64,000 nt of DNA from assembly GCF_013315695.1 (NCBI RefSeq), contig NZ_CP054353.1. One strand, 5' to 3'. Source of the DNA: Escherichia coli. GTDB taxonomy: Bacteria; Pseudomonadota; Gammaproteobacteria; Enterobacterales; Enterobacteriaceae. This document shows, piece after piece, positions 45,075 to 53,495 of this stretch; position 1 is the first letter of the stretch; each line of letters opens with the position of its first letter. Both the position numbers and the translations under genes were made by a program. The notes beneath the pieces are model-generated. The model did not search any database and was not told where the DNA came from. It saw only the letters and a list, made by a program, of their open reading frames with translations.

Positions 45075-46172
45075 TCAGCCGCTAAAGACGTTACCTGCGC
45101 CCGGGGCGGTTTTCAGCACCCAGACACGTCCATAGTGGTTGTACCAACCTGCGCGGTGTCCGGCTTCCGGCCCGATCCCTTGATAGATATCGAAGTGTTG
45201 GCCTTTGATTGCGCCACCGACATCCAGCGCCACCATCAGACGCAATTCGTACTGACCGTTAAATTTGCCGTTATTATCCAGCAGCGGCACTTCTGCCAGC
45301 AAGGTAGTACCTGGCGGAATAATTGAACGATCGGAGGCAACAGAAGCACGGCCAACCAGCGGCACCGCACTTGCCCCTTTCACCGGTGCAAAAGATTGCG
45401 GTTTAAAGAAGACGAAAGACGGGTTCTGTTCCAGCAGCTCGCGAACCTCGGCTTCACTGTGTGTTTCACCCCAGTGACGAATCGCCTGCATCGACATATC
45501 TTCTTTTTTCACTTCGCCACGGTCGATCAGCACCTTACCAATGCTGCGATAGGCATGACCGTTTTTCCCTGCATAGCTGAAAAAGTTAAGCGGACTGCCA
45601 TCACCAAAGTCGATATACCCACTACCCTGCACATCCATAATGAAGTTATCCATCAGAGAGTTGCTGTAAGCGAGGATGTATTTATCGCTCAATGCCCCCG
45701 CGTAGATCTCCGCACGAGACGGCAGACGACCACGTTTTGGCGGCATACGGTAAATCGGATACTGAAACTCGCCCTGGCGGGTATGGCGCGCCTGAATTAC
45801 TGGCGTGTAATAACCGGTAAACTGCACGTTACCATAGTTGTCGGCACCTTCCATCTGCCAGGCATCAATGCCGAACTGGCGCATATTGCGGGTATCACCG
45901 CCTGCGCGCAGCCACTCTTGCACCGCGTTATAAACATTACTCTGGTTGCCATACAGACGCGGTGACGAATTACGGATATGGTTAATTTGCTCGGCAAAAT
46001 CACCGGCGTTAATCGGCGCGCCAACGGCATCTGGCTGGTTCACCAGAGAGAAAGGCTGGGTAAATTTCCCGTCTTTATATTGCTGTCCGCGATCGGTTGG
46101 TTTGGAAGAGCAGGCGGCAAGCATTGCCACAACCGTGCCCATAAGAAGGTACTTTACCCAACGTCCTTTCAT
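45075..46172 (-). CDS. mltA: membrane-bound lytic murein transglycosylase A
   Basis: Track ORF runs to 46454 through the tRNA promoter and first tRNA; true start is almost certainly MKGRWVKYLLMGTVVAMLAACSS (lipoprotein signal) at 46172, giving 365 aa. Confidence 0.92.
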   Translation of the reverse strand: MKGRWVKYLLMGTVVAMLAACSSKPTDRGQQYKDGKFTQPFSLVNQPDAVGAPINAGDFAEQINHIRNSSPRLYGNQSNVYNAVQEWLRAGGDTRNMRQFGIDAWQMEGADNYGNVQFTGYYTPVIQARHTRQGEFQYPIYRMPPKRGRLPSRAEIYAGALSDKYILAYSNSLMDNFIMDVQGSGYIDFGDGSPLNFFSYAGKNGHAYRSIGKVLIDRGEVKKEDMSMQAIRHWGETHSEAEVRELLEQNPSFVFFKPQSFAPVKGASAVPLVGRASVASDRSIIPPGTTLLAEVPLLDNNGKFNGQYELRLMVALDVGGAIKGQHFDIYQGIGPEAGHRAGWYNHYGRVWVLKTAPGAGNVFSG

Positions 46173-46339
46173 TGTTCTCTTCTTCAGGTTAAAAAATAAG
46201 GCGCAACGAAGATAACAAACCGCCGCGTTTAATGAAATGAGCAGCCTCTCCCTGACGCAAATTTTGCACAAAAAATAGGCTTTAGTGATTTGTTTTTGCT
46301 CAAAATCATACCAAATCCGTGATCTGGGTAAAAAAAAGG

Positions 46340-46367
46340 TTGCATGAAAACGCGAGCGGAGTATAGT
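46340..46367 (+). promoter_or_regulatory. sigma70 promoter of the tRNA-fMet cluster
   Basis: TTGCAT, 16-bp spacer, TATAGT, followed by GC-rich discriminator GCGCATCC typical of stringently controlled stable-RNA promoters; about 13 bp upstream of the first tRNA. Confidence 0.7.
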
Positions 46368-46380
46368 GCGCATCCACGGA

Positions 46381-46457
<77 letters not shown>

Positions 46458-46490
46458 ATTAAAATTTGATGAAGTAAAGCAGTACGGTGA

Positions 46491-46567
<77 letters not shown>

Positions 46568-46600
46568 ATCAAAATTTAATGAAGTAAAGTAGTACGGTGA

Positions 46601-46677
<77 letters not shown>

Positions 46678-46694
46678 ACACTTATGATGCTGAT

Positions 46695-46729
46695 AAACCG
46701 CAATGTGTTTCACAGATTGCGGTTTTTTT
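46695..46729 (+). terminator. rho-independent terminator of the tRNA-fMet operon
   Basis: aaaccgcaat...attgcggttt hairpin followed by T-run. Confidence 0.8.
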
Positions 46730-46755
46730 GTATTTAAAATCTTTGTTCGCTGAAC

Positions 46756-47712
46756 TCACAACACGTTTTTTATCTCCCTTCCTGCGAAGTAATCAATTAT
46801 CGACTGGGCAACGTGTATCCCGGTTTGCTGGTATGACTCAACGGTGGCTGCCGCGATATGCGGCGTTGTAATGATATTTTTGGCATGTAGCAGTGGGCTA
46901 AATTGCGCCAACGGTTCAGAGCTAAACACATCCAGCGCCGCAAACACATTTCGTTCTTCAATCACCTGAAGTAAAGCGCCCTCATCCAGCAACTTTCCCC
47001 TTGCGGCATTGATGATCAGAGCACCATTGCGCATCATCGACAAATATTTATGACTAATGAAGTTCTCCAGCTCCGGAGAAAATGGCAAAAGAACGATGAT
47101 GACATGAGACTGCATAAAGATATCTTCAATTGATACGAACTGAACTCCATCTTTGCCTGCGGCCTGGAAATCGGGTTGTTTGTCAAAAGCTAAAAGCTCA
47201 ACATCAAAACCAGATAACCTTTTCGCCAGTGTTTTGCCAATATTGCCGTAGCCAAGCAGGCCAATACGTTTACCTTGTAACTCGCAGCCATGCGACTCGC
47301 CCCAATAACCATTTTGCATCGCATGATAGCTACCGGGGATATTTCTCATGCTCGCGAAGATAAGTCCAATGATAAATTCCGCAACCGCATTTGAATTAAT
47401 CCCAACCGCATTATTGACAACAATACCGGATTGCTGTGCCGCACGAAGATCAATATTGTCTATCCCCGTCCCGAATCTCGATATTATTTTCACACCAGAC
47501 AGCAATGATAGCGTGTCCGCCTGATAACAATCTTTTCCGGCGATGACCGCGCAAATAGATTCTCGTAATGCAGTGGATTCTGATTTAAGCAGATGCTCCA
47601 CATTATTCTTAATAATAAGATTAAAATTATTCTCTCTTAGCAACTTGCTGGCGGAAACACAGCGTGCTGAAAAGCTGGGGACGGTGACCAGAACATTTTT
47701 CATAGCTGACAC
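46756..47712 (-). CDS. D-isomer-specific 2-hydroxyacid dehydrogenase family protein (accessory island)
   Basis: 318-aa ORF with NAD-binding GxGxxG (GLLGYGNIG) and catalytic-domain layout of SerA/GhrA-type dehydrogenases; AT-rich codon usage. Confidence 0.75.
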   Translation of the reverse strand: MSAMKNVLVTVPSFSARCVSASKLLRENNFNLIIKNNVEHLLKSESTALRESICAVIAGKDCYQADTLSLLSGVKIISRFGTGIDNIDLRAAQQSGIVVNNAVGINSNAVAEFIIGLIFASMRNIPGSYHAMQNGYWGESHGCELQGKRIGLLGYGNIGKTLAKRLSGFDVELLAFDKQPDFQAAGKDGVQFVSIEDIFMQSHVIIVLLPFSPELENFISHKYLSMMRNGALIINAARGKLLDEGALLQVIEERNVFAALDVFSSEPLAQFSPLLHAKNIITTPHIAAATVESYQQTGIHVAQSIIDYFAGREIKNVL

Positions 47713-47773
47713 TCACTTCAAAGAACGCCACCCCAAAAGATGGCGTGACCGGTTACTGTTTTATATTCTAAAA

Positions 47774-48370
47774 TTATGAGTTTGCTTTAATACCGAGCGC
47801 ACCTCCTGGATGATATAAGCCGAAATCAGCACGAGTAAACTTTTTCAATTCGGAGAGCGCAAGCGCCACCGCATCACCAACAACCAGAACGACTGTTGAT
47901 GAGCATGACGGCGCTAAACCTAAATTATCCGCCTCACTTTTTACGGGAATTTCAACGGATAAATCACAACTTATCGCAAGCGATGAGTGATGACTGCGTG
48001 TAAAAGAGATCAAATAATTACCCATTTTTTTCAGACTAGGCAGTGTCGCCAGGATTTCCGCCGTCTCACCACTGTTTGAAATAAGAATAACAACATCGTC
48101 TTTCGCCACCATTCCAAGGTCGCCGTGTACCGCTTCCGTACCGTGAACAAAAAACGAGGGAGTTCCGGTACTGGCAAAAGTTGCTGCGAGTTTTCTGGCA
48201 ATAATACCGGACTTACCAACACCAATAAAAACAACTTTTCCCTGACAAGATTGTAATACTTTAATTAAATTTGCGACCTCCGAAAGGGGGGAATCAATAA
48301 CTTCTTCAACTGCTTTATATTCGTTACGCATAAAATGTTTAATGAGATGGATAAGATCCGTGCTGTTCAT
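47774..48370 (-). CDS. SIS-domain sugar-phosphate isomerase (KpsF/GutQ-like SIS domain without CBS domains)
   Basis: 198-aa ORF with SIS motifs GVGKSG...SNSGET; closest in memory to arabinose-5-P isomerase or hexulose-6-P isomerase SIS domains. Confidence 0.7.
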   Translation of the reverse strand: MNSTDLIHLIKHFMRNEYKAVEEVIDSPLSEVANLIKVLQSCQGKVVFIGVGKSGIIARKLAATFASTGTPSFFVHGTEAVHGDLGMVAKDDVVILISNSGETAEILATLPSLKKMGNYLISFTRSHHSSLAISCDLSVEIPVKSEADNLGLAPSCSSTVVLVVGDAVALALSELKKFTRADFGLYHPGGALGIKANS

Positions 48371-48372
48371 TT

Positions 48373-49554
48373 TTATTTTCCTTGATTAATATTTTTAATT
48401 ACACTCGCAAGACGCGTAAGCCCCATATATAATTTTTCTCGACCGCAGGCCAGGTTCAGACGAAGGTAGCCCTCCCCCTCCGTTCCATAGACATGCCCCG
48501 CCATAATGCCCACTTTGCCTTCATGAATTAATCGACTGTAAAATTCATCAAAAGGATAACCAATAGCAGAACAATCTATCCAGGAAAAATAGCAACCATC
48601 AGCTGGCCTTACGATCAATTCTGGAATATTTTCATTCAGATACTGCTGGGTGAATTGAATGTTAGAGGCAATATGTACCTTTAATGACTTTAACCATCCC
48701 TCACATTCGTTATAGGCAATAATAGTTGCAATTATATTCAGTACTGATGGGGAGTTTACAAAATCGCGATACCTCGATATCGTTCTGAACTTATGATTAA
48801 AATTATCGTCAGTTGAAATCATATACGATCCTGTTAGTGCAGGAACATTAAATGTTTTCGATATCGAGTTAAATACTACTACTTTTTCTTTTTTTATTTT
48901 AAGCGCGGATGTAAAGCTACGATTAAAAACAAAATCACTATGGATTTCATCTGAACATAACCAGACATTATGCCTTGTACAGCTTGCAGCGATTTTATGC
49001 AGTTCTTCTTCCGACCAGACTGTTCCTGTCGGGTTATGAGGATTACATAATAACACCATCTTTGCGCCTTTAATCTTAAGTTCAAAATCTTGCCAGTTGA
49101 TAGCGTAGCCCCCCTCATTTTTTATAATCAAAGAGGCTGTCAGAATATTTCGCTCGCTATGTTTAATTACATCAAAAAATGCATTATAGACAGGTGTAAA
49201 AACGAGAATATTATCACCATGTGATGTCAATAACTCTATTGCTTTTGCAATAGAGTACATCACACTGGGGCTATAGGTGATCCATTCTGGTTTGATTTCA
49301 GTTTTATATTGTTGATGATACCAGTTTACTATCGCATTCAGATAGTCATCATGCTGCCAACGGCTGTACCCTAAAATCGGGTGTTCCAGACGTTTTCTTA
49401 ATGCCCTGATGATAGCGTCCGGTATCGGAAGATCCATATCTGAAATAGAGAATGGTAATACATCTTTTACACCAAATCTGTCCTCGCAAAAGTCCCATTG
49501 GGTACAATATGTTCCTTTGCGGGAAACAGGAGTATTAAAAACATCCATCAGCAT
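48373..49554 (-). CDS. PLP-dependent C-S lyase / aminotransferase, MalY/PatB family
   Basis: 393-aa ORF that aligns by eye along its length with E. coli MalY (TQWD, LPF.ISDMD, LLC.P.NPTG, SDEIH, SK.FN.PAL). Confidence 0.75.
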   Translation of the reverse strand: MLMDVFNTPVSRKGTYCTQWDFCEDRFGVKDVLPFSISDMDLPIPDAIIRALRKRLEHPILGYSRWQHDDYLNAIVNWYHQQYKTEIKPEWITYSPSVMYSIAKAIELLTSHGDNILVFTPVYNAFFDVIKHSERNILTASLIIKNEGGYAINWQDFELKIKGAKMVLLCNPHNPTGTVWSEEELHKIAASCTRHNVWLCSDEIHSDFVFNRSFTSALKIKKEKVVVFNSISKTFNVPALTGSYMISTDDNFNHKFRTISRYRDFVNSPSVLNIIATIIAYNECEGWLKSLKVHIASNIQFTQQYLNENIPELIVRPADGCYFSWIDCSAIGYPFDEFYSRLIHEGKVGIMAGHVYGTEGEGYLRLNLACGREKLYMGLTRLASVIKNINQGK

Positions 49555-51128
49555 ATCCCCATGTAGTTATCCATATCCCGACGCAAGGCGATGACTTTAG
49601 TACCGATAATGACTTGTAGGGTATTTTGATCAAGTTTAACAACCGCAATCCCGCCAGCTCTTTTTATTGCAACTTCGTCAATCAATCCCATATCTGCGAT
49701 TGTTAAACGTAAACGAGTTACGCAATTATCCAGTGACTTAATATTCTCTTTACCACCAAGTGCCTTAACCATCTGCTCCGCCGCTTGCAGCTCTGATTTA
49801 TCAGGAGTTGGGATATCCGCTATAGCCGTATCTTCGTGAACGTTCAGCGTGACAGGACTGGACTCTTCACGGCCTACGGTCATCAGGTTAAATTTAAGAA
49901 TGGTCCAACGGAACACAAAGTAATAAATGAAGAAATAGGCCACTTCGACACACACCGCGATCGGCCAACCTGTTCTTGTGCCACGCAATACGCCAAAGCT
50001 AATAAATTGAATCAGATCGCCAGTAAATCCCATCTTCACGCCCATATATGGCAGAACCATGTTAGCGAATCCATTCATAAAGGCATGGAAGACAAACAGC
50101 AGTGGACTGACAAATAAGAACAGAAACTCAATCGGTTCGCTGACGCCGCCAATAATCACCGTAAGCACCCCGGAAATAAGCAATGCTTTGATAGCCTTTC
50201 TGTTTTGAGCATGAGCAGTGCGATACATCGCCAGCGCGGCACCAGCCAGACCATACTGAATCATCAGTTTGCCCTGCTCCATTTTCCCCGCCAAATCCAG
50301 CGGAATGACCGCATTCTCTTTAACGTATGCCATAAACATGTTCAGGGTGCCGTAATATTCTTCGCCGCCAATCACAGCCGAACCGCCGATTGGCGTAAAG
50401 CGGAAAACTGACGTCACCAGATGGTTTAAGCCAAAAGGAATCGTCACGCGTTCGGCAACTGCATAGAAGAAATAACCAACAGGACCGGAAGTTGATATCC
50501 AGTGGCCAATGAGCATGAAGAGATTGAAAAACGGCGGCCAGATAAAAGGAATGATCAGACCAAATCCACTCATCACAATCAGTGTAATGATAGGCACCAG
50601 ACGTGGGCCGCTATAAAAACCTAATGATTCAGGAATGCGTAAATTAACGATCTTTTTATACATGCTGGCGACTAATAACCCAGCAACAATTCCCCCTAAC
50701 ACGCTGGTATTGTAGGACTGGATCCCCAGAATGATGGTTTGCCCATGTGTCGACATTTGGTCAGCAGCGACCAATAAGTCGTGCTGTTTAAGATAAAAGT
50801 TCGTTCCCAGATGCATCGCCATAAAACCAATTAAGCCAGAAAAAGCGCCATAGGCTTTATCCTCTTTCTCTTTTAATAATCCTAAGGGAATTGCTATCGC
50901 AAACAATACAGGTAAATTAACAAAGGCAAACAAACCAAGGCTAACAATGAAATCAAGTATGGTTTTAATTATTGGAATAGTCAGAAATGGAATTAACTTT
51001 GCCATATCATCACTGGCTAAACCACTTCCCAGCCCTAGCATCATGCCACATACACTTAGCAGAGCAATGGGATACATAAATGCCTTCCCCAGGCTCTGAA
51101 AAAAACTCCAGGCTTTCTTTTGTTTCAT
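49548..51128 (-). CDS. PTS glucose-family EIICB component, MalX-like
   Basis: 526-aa polytopic ORF with C-terminal EIIB phosphocysteine motif (NCVTRLRL); strong resemblance to MalX/PtsG EIICB. Confidence 0.8.
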   Translation of the reverse strand: MKQKKAWSFFQSLGKAFMYPIALLSVCGMMLGLGSGLASDDMAKLIPFLTIPIIKTILDFIVSLGLFAFVNLPVLFAIAIPLGLLKEKEDKAYGAFSGLIGFMAMHLGTNFYLKQHDLLVAADQMSTHGQTIILGIQSYNTSVLGGIVAGLLVASMYKKIVNLRIPESLGFYSGPRLVPIITLIVMSGFGLIIPFIWPPFFNLFMLIGHWISTSGPVGYFFYAVAERVTIPFGLNHLVTSVFRFTPIGGSAVIGGEEYYGTLNMFMAYVKENAVIPLDLAGKMEQGKLMIQYGLAGAALAMYRTAHAQNRKAIKALLISGVLTVIIGGVSEPIEFLFLFVSPLLFVFHAFMNGFANMVLPYMGVKMGFTGDLIQFISFGVLRGTRTGWPIAVCVEVAYFFIYYFVFRWTILKFNLMTVGREESSPVTLNVHEDTAIADIPTPDKSELQAAEQMVKALGGKENIKSLDNCVTRLRLTIADMGLIDEVAIKRAGGIAVVKLDQNTLQVIIGTKVIALRRDMDNYMGIC

Positions 51129-51159
51129 GTGGGTTATCTCATATAAATGTTATATATAA

Positions 51160-51984
51160 TTAGTCCATTAATACTTTGGTACGAATAGAGAGATATAGTT
51201 TTTCTTCTAAAATTAATTCATATTTAAAAGTGGCATACAGATACCGTTCAATTTCATGAATTGCGCGCTGTAAAAGGATGTCCTTTTCAAGAAACTGTTC
51301 ATAGATATCACCAATATCTTTCTGTTTTATTTTTTCATTGCATAACACGCGACTTGAAAAATATTTAAGGTGTATCATGAACCTGGAATAATTAAATGAA
51401 CTTCTGTCCACCTTTCTGTTATAAACAACTTCAATAAGCCCCGTGATTATTTGCGACAACTCAATAATCCGTACTGATTCATAATCAACTGAATTTTCAT
51501 AATTATTTAAAATATGCAATGCTATAAAACCAATCTCATCATCAGGAAGTTGAACGCTGAATTGCTCATTAATGATAGTTAATGCATCGCGACTTATCGC
51601 ATACTCTGCTTTGTACAACGCTTTGATTTCATCAAGGAAAACATTATTAATTTGTATGCCTGAAGCGACTCTGGATATTGCATTCGAAATGTGATCAGCA
51701 AGAATCAATAGTAGCGATGGATTGAGATTTTTTTCGAGATTGTTCTCCGCATATTGCACTATTTTTTCGGCAACAAAAACATACTCAATATCCACATGTT
51801 CAATCAATTTGTAGAGTTTATTTTTTTGTTCATTTCTGACATAAAAAATCCGGTTAGCCGGATGCTCAGGGACCGACATTCCATATTTTTTGTTGTAACC
51901 GACGCCAGGCCCAGAAATGATAACCTCCTGTCCATTCATCGATGCCTGTACACAATTATTGTTCATGACTTTTTCGATGATCAT
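51160..51984 (-). CDS. BglG/LicT-family transcription antiterminator (CAT RNA-binding domain + PRDs)
   Basis: N-terminus MIIEKVMNNNCVQASMNGQEVIISGPGVGY matches the co-antiterminator domain signature; track ORF starts 19 codons upstream (52041) inside the leader terminator, and GGAG precedes the ATG at 51984. Confidence 0.7.
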   Translation of the reverse strand: MIIEKVMNNNCVQASMNGQEVIISGPGVGYNKKYGMSVPEHPANRIFYVRNEQKNKLYKLIEHVDIEYVFVAEKIVQYAENNLEKNLNPSLLLILADHISNAISRVASGIQINNVFLDEIKALYKAEYAISRDALTIINEQFSVQLPDDEIGFIALHILNNYENSVDYESVRIIELSQIITGLIEVVYNRKVDRSSFNYSRFMIHLKYFSSRVLCNEKIKQKDIGDIYEQFLEKDILLQRAIHEIERYLYATFKYELILEEKLYLSIRTKVLMD

Positions 51985-51995
51985 TCCATGGCTCC

Positions 51996-52068
51996 AAAAA
52001 AAAAGGCAAGGCACGTCAGAAGTAATAACTACTTCAAACATTGCCTTGCCTGATTTAACAGTTACAAG
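51996..52068 (-). promoter_or_regulatory. RAT (ribonucleic antiterminator) overlapping a rho-independent terminator in the antiterminator leader
   Basis: Minus strand CTTGTAACTGTTAAATCAGGCAAG resembles the BglG/LicT RAT consensus (GGATTGTTACTG...CAGGCAAAACC); its 3' half forms the 5' arm of hairpin GGCAAGG...CCTTGCC followed by T9. Confidence 0.6.
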
Positions 52069-52241
52069 ATGATTAACTAATGCGTATACATTACACGGAA
52101 TTGTGCTTAATTAAAGAGATGGTCGGCTTATTTTTCAAGCCGACATTCAAATATCCGACATCAGTCACAAAACCAGCGTCTAATATTCAGGTAAATGTTA
52201 TCTATTCAACGAAATATAAATTCATTGAATAAATAAAAACA

Positions 52242-53495
52242 TTATCCCCTTCTCGCCAGCGTCGCCCCATCGGCAAAATACGCTTTAATTCCCGCAAGAA
52301 TAGACTCCGCAACTTCCTGCTGGAAAGTCGCCGTTTTCAGTTTACGCTCTTCCTCAACGTTACTGATAAACGCCGTTTCGACCAGAATGGAGGGAATATC
52401 TGGTGCCTTTAGTACGGCAAACCCGGCCTGTTCAACTTGATTTTTATGCAGCTTGTTGATTTTACCGAGCTTATTCAGCACCGCTTTACCAAACTTCAGG
52501 CTGTCAGCAATGGTCAGCGACTGCACCATATCGAACATGGTGTGGTCGACATAGCGGTCACCGCTTTTGCTTACGCCACCAATCAAGTCCGAGGCGTTCT
52601 GGGTTTGTGCCAGATATTTTGCCGCAGTACTGGTTGCGCCTTTGGTTGAGAGCGCAAACACCGAGGAACCGCTCGGCTGGCGACTGGTAAAGGCGTCGGC
52701 ATGGATAGAGACAAACAAGTCAGCACGCTGTTTCTGGGCTTTTGCTACGCGCACTTGCAACGGAATGAAGATGTCTTCATTGCGCGTCATGTACACCTTC
52801 ATATTGCCCTCTTTCTCGATCAGAGAGCGCAGACGGCGAGCTATTTGCAATACCACGTCTTTTTCGCGTGTTTTGTATTTCCCCACCGCACCGGAGTCTT
52901 CGCCACCGTGGCCAGGGTCAAGCATAATGACAATCGGACGATCCCGCCCAGCTTTACCCGGTTGTGGACCACTTTGTGCTGGCGGCACCTGCTTTTCGAG
53001 GTCGCCTTTGTTGTAATCCTCCAGCAGCGCCAGCAGCGGGTCCTGCATGTCCTGAGCATTGGCAGGATAGAGATCCATCACCAGACGCTCTTTAAACCCG
53101 GCGACCGGAGCAAGGGCAAACAGCTGCGGTTTTACGTTTTGCTTTAACTCAAAAACCATCCGCACGGTTTGCGGGTCAAACTGCCCGACGCGCGCCGACT
53201 TGATGAACGGGTCATCAGCACGAATTTGTGCCGCCATCCCCTTGAGCACTGAGTTCAGGTTTACATCTTCGATATCCACCACCACGCGTTCAGGGTTACT
53301 CAACGCGAACTGCTTATATTTCAGCTGACGATTAGATTCTACCGTCACACGGGTGTAGCTGGACGCAGGCCAGACGCGCACCGCCACGACCTGGCTGACC
53401 GCAGCCAGACTGACCTGACTTACGCTCAATAGCCACATGGCACCCGCGCCTTGCAGTAAACGACGACGGCTGATTGCAGTGTTGGATCCTGACAT
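52242..53495 (-). CDS. amiC: N-acetylmuramoyl-L-alanine amidase AmiC (Tat-exported)
   Basis: Amidase_3 domain; N-terminal twin-arginine signal ([11 protein letters not shown]); track ORF is 5 codons longer, probable start MSGSNTAI. Confidence 0.9.

Follow-up and report, generated by a model that had tools for sequence, protein, structure and literature searches.

A predicted substrate-inducible PTS operon of the CFT073 c3405-c3410 type between metV and amiC of Escherichia coli

Gene content and borders of the metV–amiC region

The DNA analysed here (the window; 64,000 nucleotides of Escherichia coli, NCBI RefSeq assembly GCF_013315695.1, contig NZ_CP054353.1) includes a region of the E. coli chromosome that runs csdA-csdE-tcdA-mltA, the three initiator tRNA-Met genes metZ/W/V (46381–46677), a five-gene region, and then amiC-argA-recD. 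The five genes (46756–51984, minus strand) encode, in order of transcription, a transcription antiterminator, an enzyme IICB (EIICB) of the phosphotransferase system (PTS), a PatB-like lyase dependent on pyridoxal phosphate (PLP), a SIS-domain protein, and a dehydrogenase (Table 1). They are tightly packed: 31 nt separate the first two, the second and third overlap at start and stop codon, and the remaining gaps measure 2 nt and 70 nt. An earlier note, made from the sequence alone, had described these genes as an island; all of its open reading frames (ORFs) are present where it placed them, its end coordinate is exact, and its family assignments hold against NCBIfam and the PDB.

The island is a horizontally acquired module. 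Homology to K-12 is lost one base past metV (46678) and picked up again where amiC has its stop codon (52241), with 5.56 kb here in place of the 73-bp spacer between metV and amiC in K-12. GC content is 0.35–0.46 within the island, compared with 0.50–0.56 in its flanks. At the island borders, we found neither an att-like duplication of the tRNA 3′ end nor an integrase remnant. The full insert was found in 1683 of 5426 complete E. coli genomes, or about one third. Two allelic lineages of the island occupy the same metV site in E. coli and are ~92% identical in DNA (window positions 46679–52240 vs. two other loci); PatB is the protein that diverges most between them (86–87%). In some E. coli strains, PatB and the SIS protein are fused into a single protein of 550–592 aa.

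Family scores were obtained with NCBIfam models and read against their curated or equivalog cut-offs, and structural relatives were taken from the PDB. The antiterminator has the domain order CAT-PRD1-PRD2 (PF03123 and PF00874, found on its 274-aa orthologue) and scored 225 bits with the LicT model (residues 20–287), 178 bits with GlcT and 105 bits with BglG, all under the equivalog cut-offs. When aligned to the LicT PRD structures, it keeps His98, His157 and His205, and the position of the fourth LicT histidine is Arg268. Its true start is at 51984, matching the RefSeq annotation of an identical locus; a longer ORF to 52041 (19 extra codons, 51985–52041) was rejected as spurious because it runs into the leader terminator described below. 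A two-codon mini-ORF (ATG GAA TGA, 51989–51981) overlaps the real start codon.

EIICB carries an EIIC and an EIIB domain, with the EIIB Cys469 in NCVTRLR and SEPIEF (the EPIEF motif) at 330, and no EIIA domain was found in its sequence. The protein is 42% identical to K-12 MalX and alignable to PtsG structures, and scored under the MalX equivalog level (TIGR02004, 537 vs. a cut-off of 632; PRK10110, 525 vs. 665). The PatB-like lyase passes the curated TIGR04350 cut-off (366.5 bits vs. 340), is 37% identical to K-12 MalY, and matched MalY (1D2F, 2e-87) and a C. difficile structure (4DGT, 6e-86) in the PDB. Its invariant residues are the PLP lysine Lys231, Asp200, Asn172, Tyr121 and Arg363. By family, the PatB-like protein would be a beta C-S lyase, an activity demonstrated in the related MalY proteins of E. 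coli and C. difficile.

The SIS protein scored 197 bits with KdsD (over residues 31–195) and 192 bits with kpsF, and matched 2XHZ at 1e-40. It has no tandem CBS domains: TIGR00393 gave 191.9 bits vs. a cut-off of 203.7, covering model positions 1–152 of 268 only. Of its 198 residues, 194 (98%) are identical to PDB 5UQI/5VHU, a chain that we take to be c3406 of strain CFT073, although the PDB file labels it merely 'Phosphosugar isomerase'. By analogy with what is reported for c3406, the SIS protein would convert arabinose-5-phosphate to ribulose-5-phosphate. Finally, the dehydrogenase matched the phosphoglycerate dehydrogenase (PGDH) model best (213 bits vs. 454) and fell below the cut-offs of all equivalog models (SerA, PdxB, GhrA/B, LdhA etc.); its matches to PGDH structures reached 4e-48. 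It contains GYGNIGK at 151 (GxGxxG), LLAFD at 170–174 (with the Asp for NAD) and the triad R235, E263 and H282, and an orthologue carries PF00389 and PF02826. The structure of the SIS protein is already solved; the other four proteins have close solved relatives, which do not reveal the substrate.

These scores also bear on the resemblance to MurP/MurQ and Amadori pathways that the earlier note had seen. SIS enzymes include MurQ and the FrlB/GfrE deglycases, and PTS, SIS and dehydrogenase genes are linked in the island, as would be expected if the pathway were MurP/MurQ-like or of the Amadori (fructosamine) kind, with the SIS protein as its etherase or deglycase. However, MurQ models gave the SIS protein only 26–30 bits (cut-offs 168–302) and GlmS-type models 25–29 bits, compared with 192–197 bits for KdsD/KpsF, and the protein has a single SIS domain rather than the double-SIS architecture of GlmS/FrlB, in addition to its near-identity with the solved c3406. 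EIICB, likewise, is nearer MalX than MurP (38 bits vs. a cut-off of 516). Both resemblances are thus lost, the SIS protein being of the KpsF/GutQ type, and we consider such a pathway very improbable.

The island is the c3405-c3410 operon type of the metV pathogenicity island of CFT073 (PAI-metV), the 'malX/PAI' marker of extraintestinal pathogenic E. coli (ExPEC). It is already known, and this reading of it is not new. The two share the position next to metV, the gene set (antiterminator, MalX-like EIICB, MalY-like lyase, GutQ-like SIS protein and PGDH-like dehydrogenase), the 98% SIS identity and both marker primers. The latter are the RPAi primers of the classical ExPEC 'PAI (malX)' PCR (AF003742, 930 bp product; PMC4654559), each of which matched the window once with one mismatch, where 0 matches were expected by chance. 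Within PAI-CFT073-metV, c3405-c3410 have been listed as six genes of a "PTS system, maltose/glucose specific", present in all four uropathogenic E. coli (UPEC) strains studied, E2348 and SMS-3-5 (Bryant 2009), and the same five genes make up region GR19 of BEN2908 (2026 genome paper). The CFT073 island is 32 kb long, whereas here a sole 5.56-kb operon lies between metV and amiC, in a slightly different allele. The c3406 protein has been reported to be an arabinose-5-phosphate isomerase (Mosberg 2011).

Table 1. Features of the metV–amiC region (positions in the window)
Feature	Position	Strand	Basis
BglG/LicT/GlcT-family PRD transcription antiterminator, 274 aa	51160–51984	−	NCBIfam, LicT PRD structures
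PTS EIICB, glucose family, MalX-like, 526 aa	49548–51128	−	TIGR02004, PtsG structures
PatB/MalY-family PLP-dependent C-S (beta) lyase (predicted), 391 aa	48373–49548 (or start 49554)	−	TIGR04350, MalY/4DGT structures
SIS-only KpsF/GutQ-type sugar-phosphate isomerase (predicted), 198 aa, no CBS domains	47774–48370	−	PDB, NCBIfam
D-isomer-specific 2-hydroxyacid dehydrogenase, NAD-type, PGDH-like, 315 aa	46756–47703 (or 47712 with upstream GTG)	−	NCBIfam, PDB
Ribonucleic antiterminator (RAT) hairpin, CUUG-UAA-CUG-UUAAAU-CAG-G-CAAG	52045–52068	−	consensus match, motif scans
Leader intrinsic terminator, GGCAAGGCA...TGCCTTGCC then U9	51996–52050	−	sequence; fold −30.1 kcal/mol, z = −3.7
RPAi amplicon, 922 bp, antiterminator 3′ end and EIICB 5′ part	50362–51283		primers at 51283–51262 and 50362–50383
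metV, tRNA-Met, third of metZ/W/V, left insert boundary	46601–46677	+	ARAGORN, Rfam, K-12 alignment
Hairpin ACCGCAAT...ATTGCGGT, flanked by A7/T7 run	46697–46729	both	sequence read; fold z = −1.9
Small hairpin ACGCCA/TGGCGT then UCUUUG, in the SIS–dehydrogenase spacer	47725–47746	−	sequence read

A RAT and an overlapping terminator in the leader

The spacer between amiC and the antiterminator gene is 257 nt long and holds a RAT-like sequence, CUUGUAACUGUUAAAUCAGGCAAG (52068–52045), that fits the BglG/SacY RAT consensus. The 3′ half of this RAT doubles as the 5′ arm of the terminator (GGCAAGGCA...UGCCUUGCC plus U9, 52050–51996). In Citrobacter and Enterobacter, the terminator stem shows compensatory changes, from GGCAAGGCA/TGCCTTGCC to GGCAAGACAA/TTGTCTTGCC. 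For the RAT, 91% of cells in the pair count were paired, and one upper-stem pair covaries from G-C to A-U, in three sequences. Between E. coli and Citrobacter, no 150-nt segment is better conserved than the leader (0.90 vs. 0.61–0.81 in coding DNA). An Rfam scan of 46000–53000 (E ≤ 1) returned just the three tRNAs; the leader thus falls under no curated family.

The scans found a RAT, a terminator-like hairpin and a T-run together in 11 homologous loci, and no locus with a match to the motif lacked this combination. It recurs in E. coli, Citrobacter, Enterobacter, Enterococcus, C. difficile, Terrisporobacter and Clostridium. One RAT/terminator unit lies upstream of the antiterminator gene in the other E. 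coli allele, in Citrobacter and in Enterobacter, and Enterococcus termitis and Terrisporobacter have two RATs each. The motif scan found no RAT in two Clostridium loci (L014/L015), Massilicoli (L027) or Solobacterium (L048), all of identical gene order. In C. difficile, the interval from the antiterminator gene to the EIICB gene holds four tandem units of ~104 nt, each made up of a RAT and then an intrinsic terminator (L006, 5990–6440; also L021, 1170–1600), an unusual serial antitermination arrangement compared with the one unit of the enterobacterial versions.

The RAT/terminator leader upstream of the antiterminator gene is a new detail added here. Since the single unit precedes the antiterminator gene itself, the operon would regulate its own expression. 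In its CAT-PRD1-PRD2 protein, its RAT overlapping an intrinsic terminator and the cognate enzyme II gene downstream, the system resembles BglG, SacY, LicT and GlcT, from which it differs in the sub-cut-off scores of the antiterminator and in the Arg at the fourth PRD histidine. Together with the PRD antiterminator and the glucose-family EIICB, the leader bears out the earlier description of the island as a PTS-dependent catabolic module.

Conservation of the gene order

In a species-level survey (one genome per species, the 80 closest PatB relatives), the order antiterminator-EIICB-PatB-SIS was kept in 10 of the 80 genomes and in six further loci. Citrobacter keeps all five genes; Enterobacter, Enterococcus termitis, C. 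difficile, Terrisporobacter, three Clostridium species, Massilicoli and Solobacterium keep the four-gene core. The Citrobacter operon lies at a different chromosomal site, between a gene for a small LTXXQ-domain protein and rnt (L004, L005, L017 and L023). Scattered homologues would have spoken against the island as a unit, and the core order proved instead to be conserved across phyla. The C. difficile malX-malY PTS operon (CD3027-CD3031) shares this order and RAT/terminator control with the island (identities: PatB, 49–51%; EIICB, 68%; SIS, 52%). It differs in having its own EIIA(Glc) gene, no dehydrogenase, and its RAT-terminators between the antiterminator and EIICB genes rather than upstream of the former. 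Its genes have been described as one PTS operon, with malY reported as essential and 20-fold induced in biofilm, and expression of CD630_30270–30300 shifts together (0.04–0.07-fold).

The operon versions differ in two genes outside the core. The first is the dehydrogenase gene, which is confined to Escherichia and Citrobacter and missing from the Clostridial and Enterobacter loci and from all Firmicute versions. Of the linear pathway proposed earlier, PTS uptake, the SIS isomerase and the PLP lyase thus belong to the conserved core, but the dehydrogenase step does not, so a four-step pathway ending in the dehydrogenase is not general. The second is an EIIA(Glc) gene, which lies in or beside the operon in Firmicute versions and is absent from the enterobacterial ones, as it is from the entire 64-kb window. 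The missing EIIA is therefore plausibly supplied in trans, in line with the earlier observation that the island lacks an EIIA gene and presumably relies on a chromosomal EIIA such as Crr.

The phyletic range of the SIS gene also bears on a biosynthetic role, in which c3406, as a KpsF-like enzyme, would supply arabinose-5-phosphate for 3-deoxy-D-manno-octulosonic acid (Kdo), lipopolysaccharide (LPS) or capsule and so explain the link with virulence. The nearest relatives of c3406 are indeed KdsD, KpsF and GutQ, and in a review it is mentioned as an enzyme for an LPS precursor with a part in UPEC pathogenicity. Yet KdsD and GutQ are already present in E. coli, and the combination of an antiterminator with a PTS is characteristic of catabolic operons. 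Moreover, the SIS gene is kept in the equivalent operon of the Gram-positive Clostridioides, Terrisporobacter, Clostridium, Enterococcus, Solobacterium and Massilicoli, which are not known to make Kdo, and supply of Kdo or capsule precursors is therefore judged most unlikely.

The pairing of EIICB with PatB extends well beyond the four-gene core. A MalX-like EIICB gene lies directly upstream of PatB on the same strand in 74 of the 80 species, spanning Proteobacteria, Firmicutes, Fusobacteria and Spirochaetes. These pairs come in three designs: with a divergent MalI repressor, the K-12 malX-malY type (Enterobacterales and Vibrionaceae, n = 24); with an RpiR-type regulator (Bacilli, enterococci and lactococci, n = 26); and with an antiterminator and SIS, the type of the island (Escherichia, Citrobacter, Enterobacter and Firmicutes, n = 10). 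No regulator was detected for the other 14 pairs. Identity to the EIICB of the island is 62–97% within the antiterminator-SIS design and 40–46% to the other two. In K-12 malI-malX-malY, as in the island, the gene of a glucose-family EIICB stands directly before that of a PatB/MalY PLP lyase, and there is no EIIA gene; the K-12 locus, however, is under a LacI-type repressor in place of an antiterminator and RAT, and has neither SIS nor dehydrogenase gene. Adjacency under three unrelated regulators suggests, from gene context, that MalX and MalY are linked in metabolism in a way for which the literature on K-12 offers no explanation. The cross-phylum core and the place of the island as one of three EIICB-PatB designs are added here.

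This adjacency counts against a simpler account, in which EIICB, like K-12 MalX, is simply an importer of glucose- or maltose-like sugars, and PatB/MalY serves cysteine or cystathionine turnover or regulates by protein binding, as MalY does with MalT. The account draws on the identities of EIICB and the lyase to MalX and MalY, on the resemblance of the antiterminator to the glucose regulator GlcT, on the annotation of the C. difficile operon as a glucose-maltose PTS, and on the in vitro activity of C. difficile MalY as a cysteine desulfhydrase. However, the adjacency is hard to explain across phyla and under three regulators without a metabolic link, the PatB catalytic residues are invariant, and regulation of the MalT type cannot apply in Firmicutes. 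The RpiR-type loci, in addition, place PatB straight after the EIICB gene; they are similar to the B. subtilis glv operon, in which an RpiR-type regulator and an EIICB are paired with a 6-phospho-alpha-glucosidase. On balance, we hold this account to be unlikely, if less so than the biosynthetic and MurQ-like ones. In Granulicatella balaenopterae (L013/L022), a PatB homologue has no adjoining MalX-like EIICB and follows a fructose/mannitol-type PTS and an Mga-like regulator, with an M20/M28-type peptidase gene after it.

When genes downstream of SIS in the antiterminator-SIS loci were inspected for clues to the substrate, no further gene recurred. In the single genome of Terrisporobacter mayombei (L008, 10488–13815), a split transketolase gene and a phosphoglucomutase-like gene follow the operon on the same strand. 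As a single case, the transketolase context fits a pentose-phosphate product.

Proposed function

We regard it as probable that the island is a substrate-inducible PTS operon for a carbohydrate derivative, of the horizontally acquired c3405-c3410 type. Transcription would come from between amiC and the operon and pass the leader terminator only when the PRD antiterminator is bound to the RAT that overlaps it. Idle EIICB would phosphorylate and thereby inactivate the antiterminator, which would be freed once EIICB hands its phosphate to incoming substrate, as for BglG, LicT and GlcT. EIICB, without an EIIA of its own, would be phosphorylated by EIIA(Glc), in E. coli the Crr protein. The phosphorylated substrate would then be handled inside the cell by the MalY/PatB-type beta-lyase, expected to release a leaving group together with pyruvate and ammonia, and by c3406, an isomerase without CBS domains, whose ribulose-5-phosphate would feed the pentose-phosphate pathway. 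As lyase and isomerase alone are conserved with the transporter, these two should suffice to reach central metabolism. The PGDH-like dehydrogenase would be a late enterobacterial add-on, probably for a 2-oxo or 2-hydroxy acid by-product.

Lloyd, in 2009, reportedly found that deletion of c3405-10 attenuates CFT073 in the mouse urinary tract. Mosberg, in 2011, is reported to have shown the isomerase activity of c3406 and to have proposed an operon for an unknown carbohydrate.

Several observations weigh against the catabolic interpretation. K-12 MalX transports glucose and maltose, and MalY regulates MalT, which means that the compound taken up is not necessarily a substrate of the lyase. In Mosberg's work, deletion of c3406 alone reportedly did not attenuate, unlike the whole-operon deletion with its colonisation defect. 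A consensus scan of the leader gave no convincing sigma-70 promoter, overall counts being at or below shuffle expectation. C. difficile MalY, as noted, acts on cysteine in vitro. Finally, the GR19 cluster of BEN2908 is still given as uncharacterised, with no substrate named (2026 genome paper).

The earlier note held that the substrate cannot be named from sequence, and this is still so after comparison of families, gene context and literature. We found no paper naming it among those on the locus tags, the PDB codes and MalX/MalY substrates. More speculatively, EIICB-PatB/MalY pairs, K-12 malX-malY included, might form an unrecognised and widespread catabolic unit for sugar-amino-acid conjugates with beta-linked serine or cysteine. 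The PLP lyase would then stand in place of a phospho-glycosidase and free phosphorylated sugar, pyruvate and ammonia by beta-elimination; in the antiterminator-SIS subtype, what is freed would resemble arabinose-5-phosphate, and c3406 would be required to bring it into the pentose-phosphate pathway. We give this proposal only a small chance of being right. If true, it would provide MalX/MalY and the ExPEC marker operon with a physiological substrate.

Few ExPEC virulence markers are typed as widely as this operon ("malX/PAI"). The question of its substrate and of the role of its PLP lyase extends to K-12 malX-malY and to the malX-malY operon of C. difficile, which is strongly expressed. The identity of the inducer would reveal a host- or diet-derived compound that carriers exploit, and the conserved RAT leader offers a direct reporter handle for an inducer screen.

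A role in defence was rejected, as PADLOC gave no matches. Two further hairpins lie in the downstream part of the island. The one between metV and the dehydrogenase gene (46697–46729) is predicted, from its sequence, to be a strong terminator for metZWV on the plus strand and a weak one, with a UUUAUC tail, for the island operon on the minus strand. It looks like a new metZWV terminator that arrived with the island and replaced the K-12 spacer. The other, in the 70-nt spacer between the SIS and dehydrogenase genes, may be a partial terminator.

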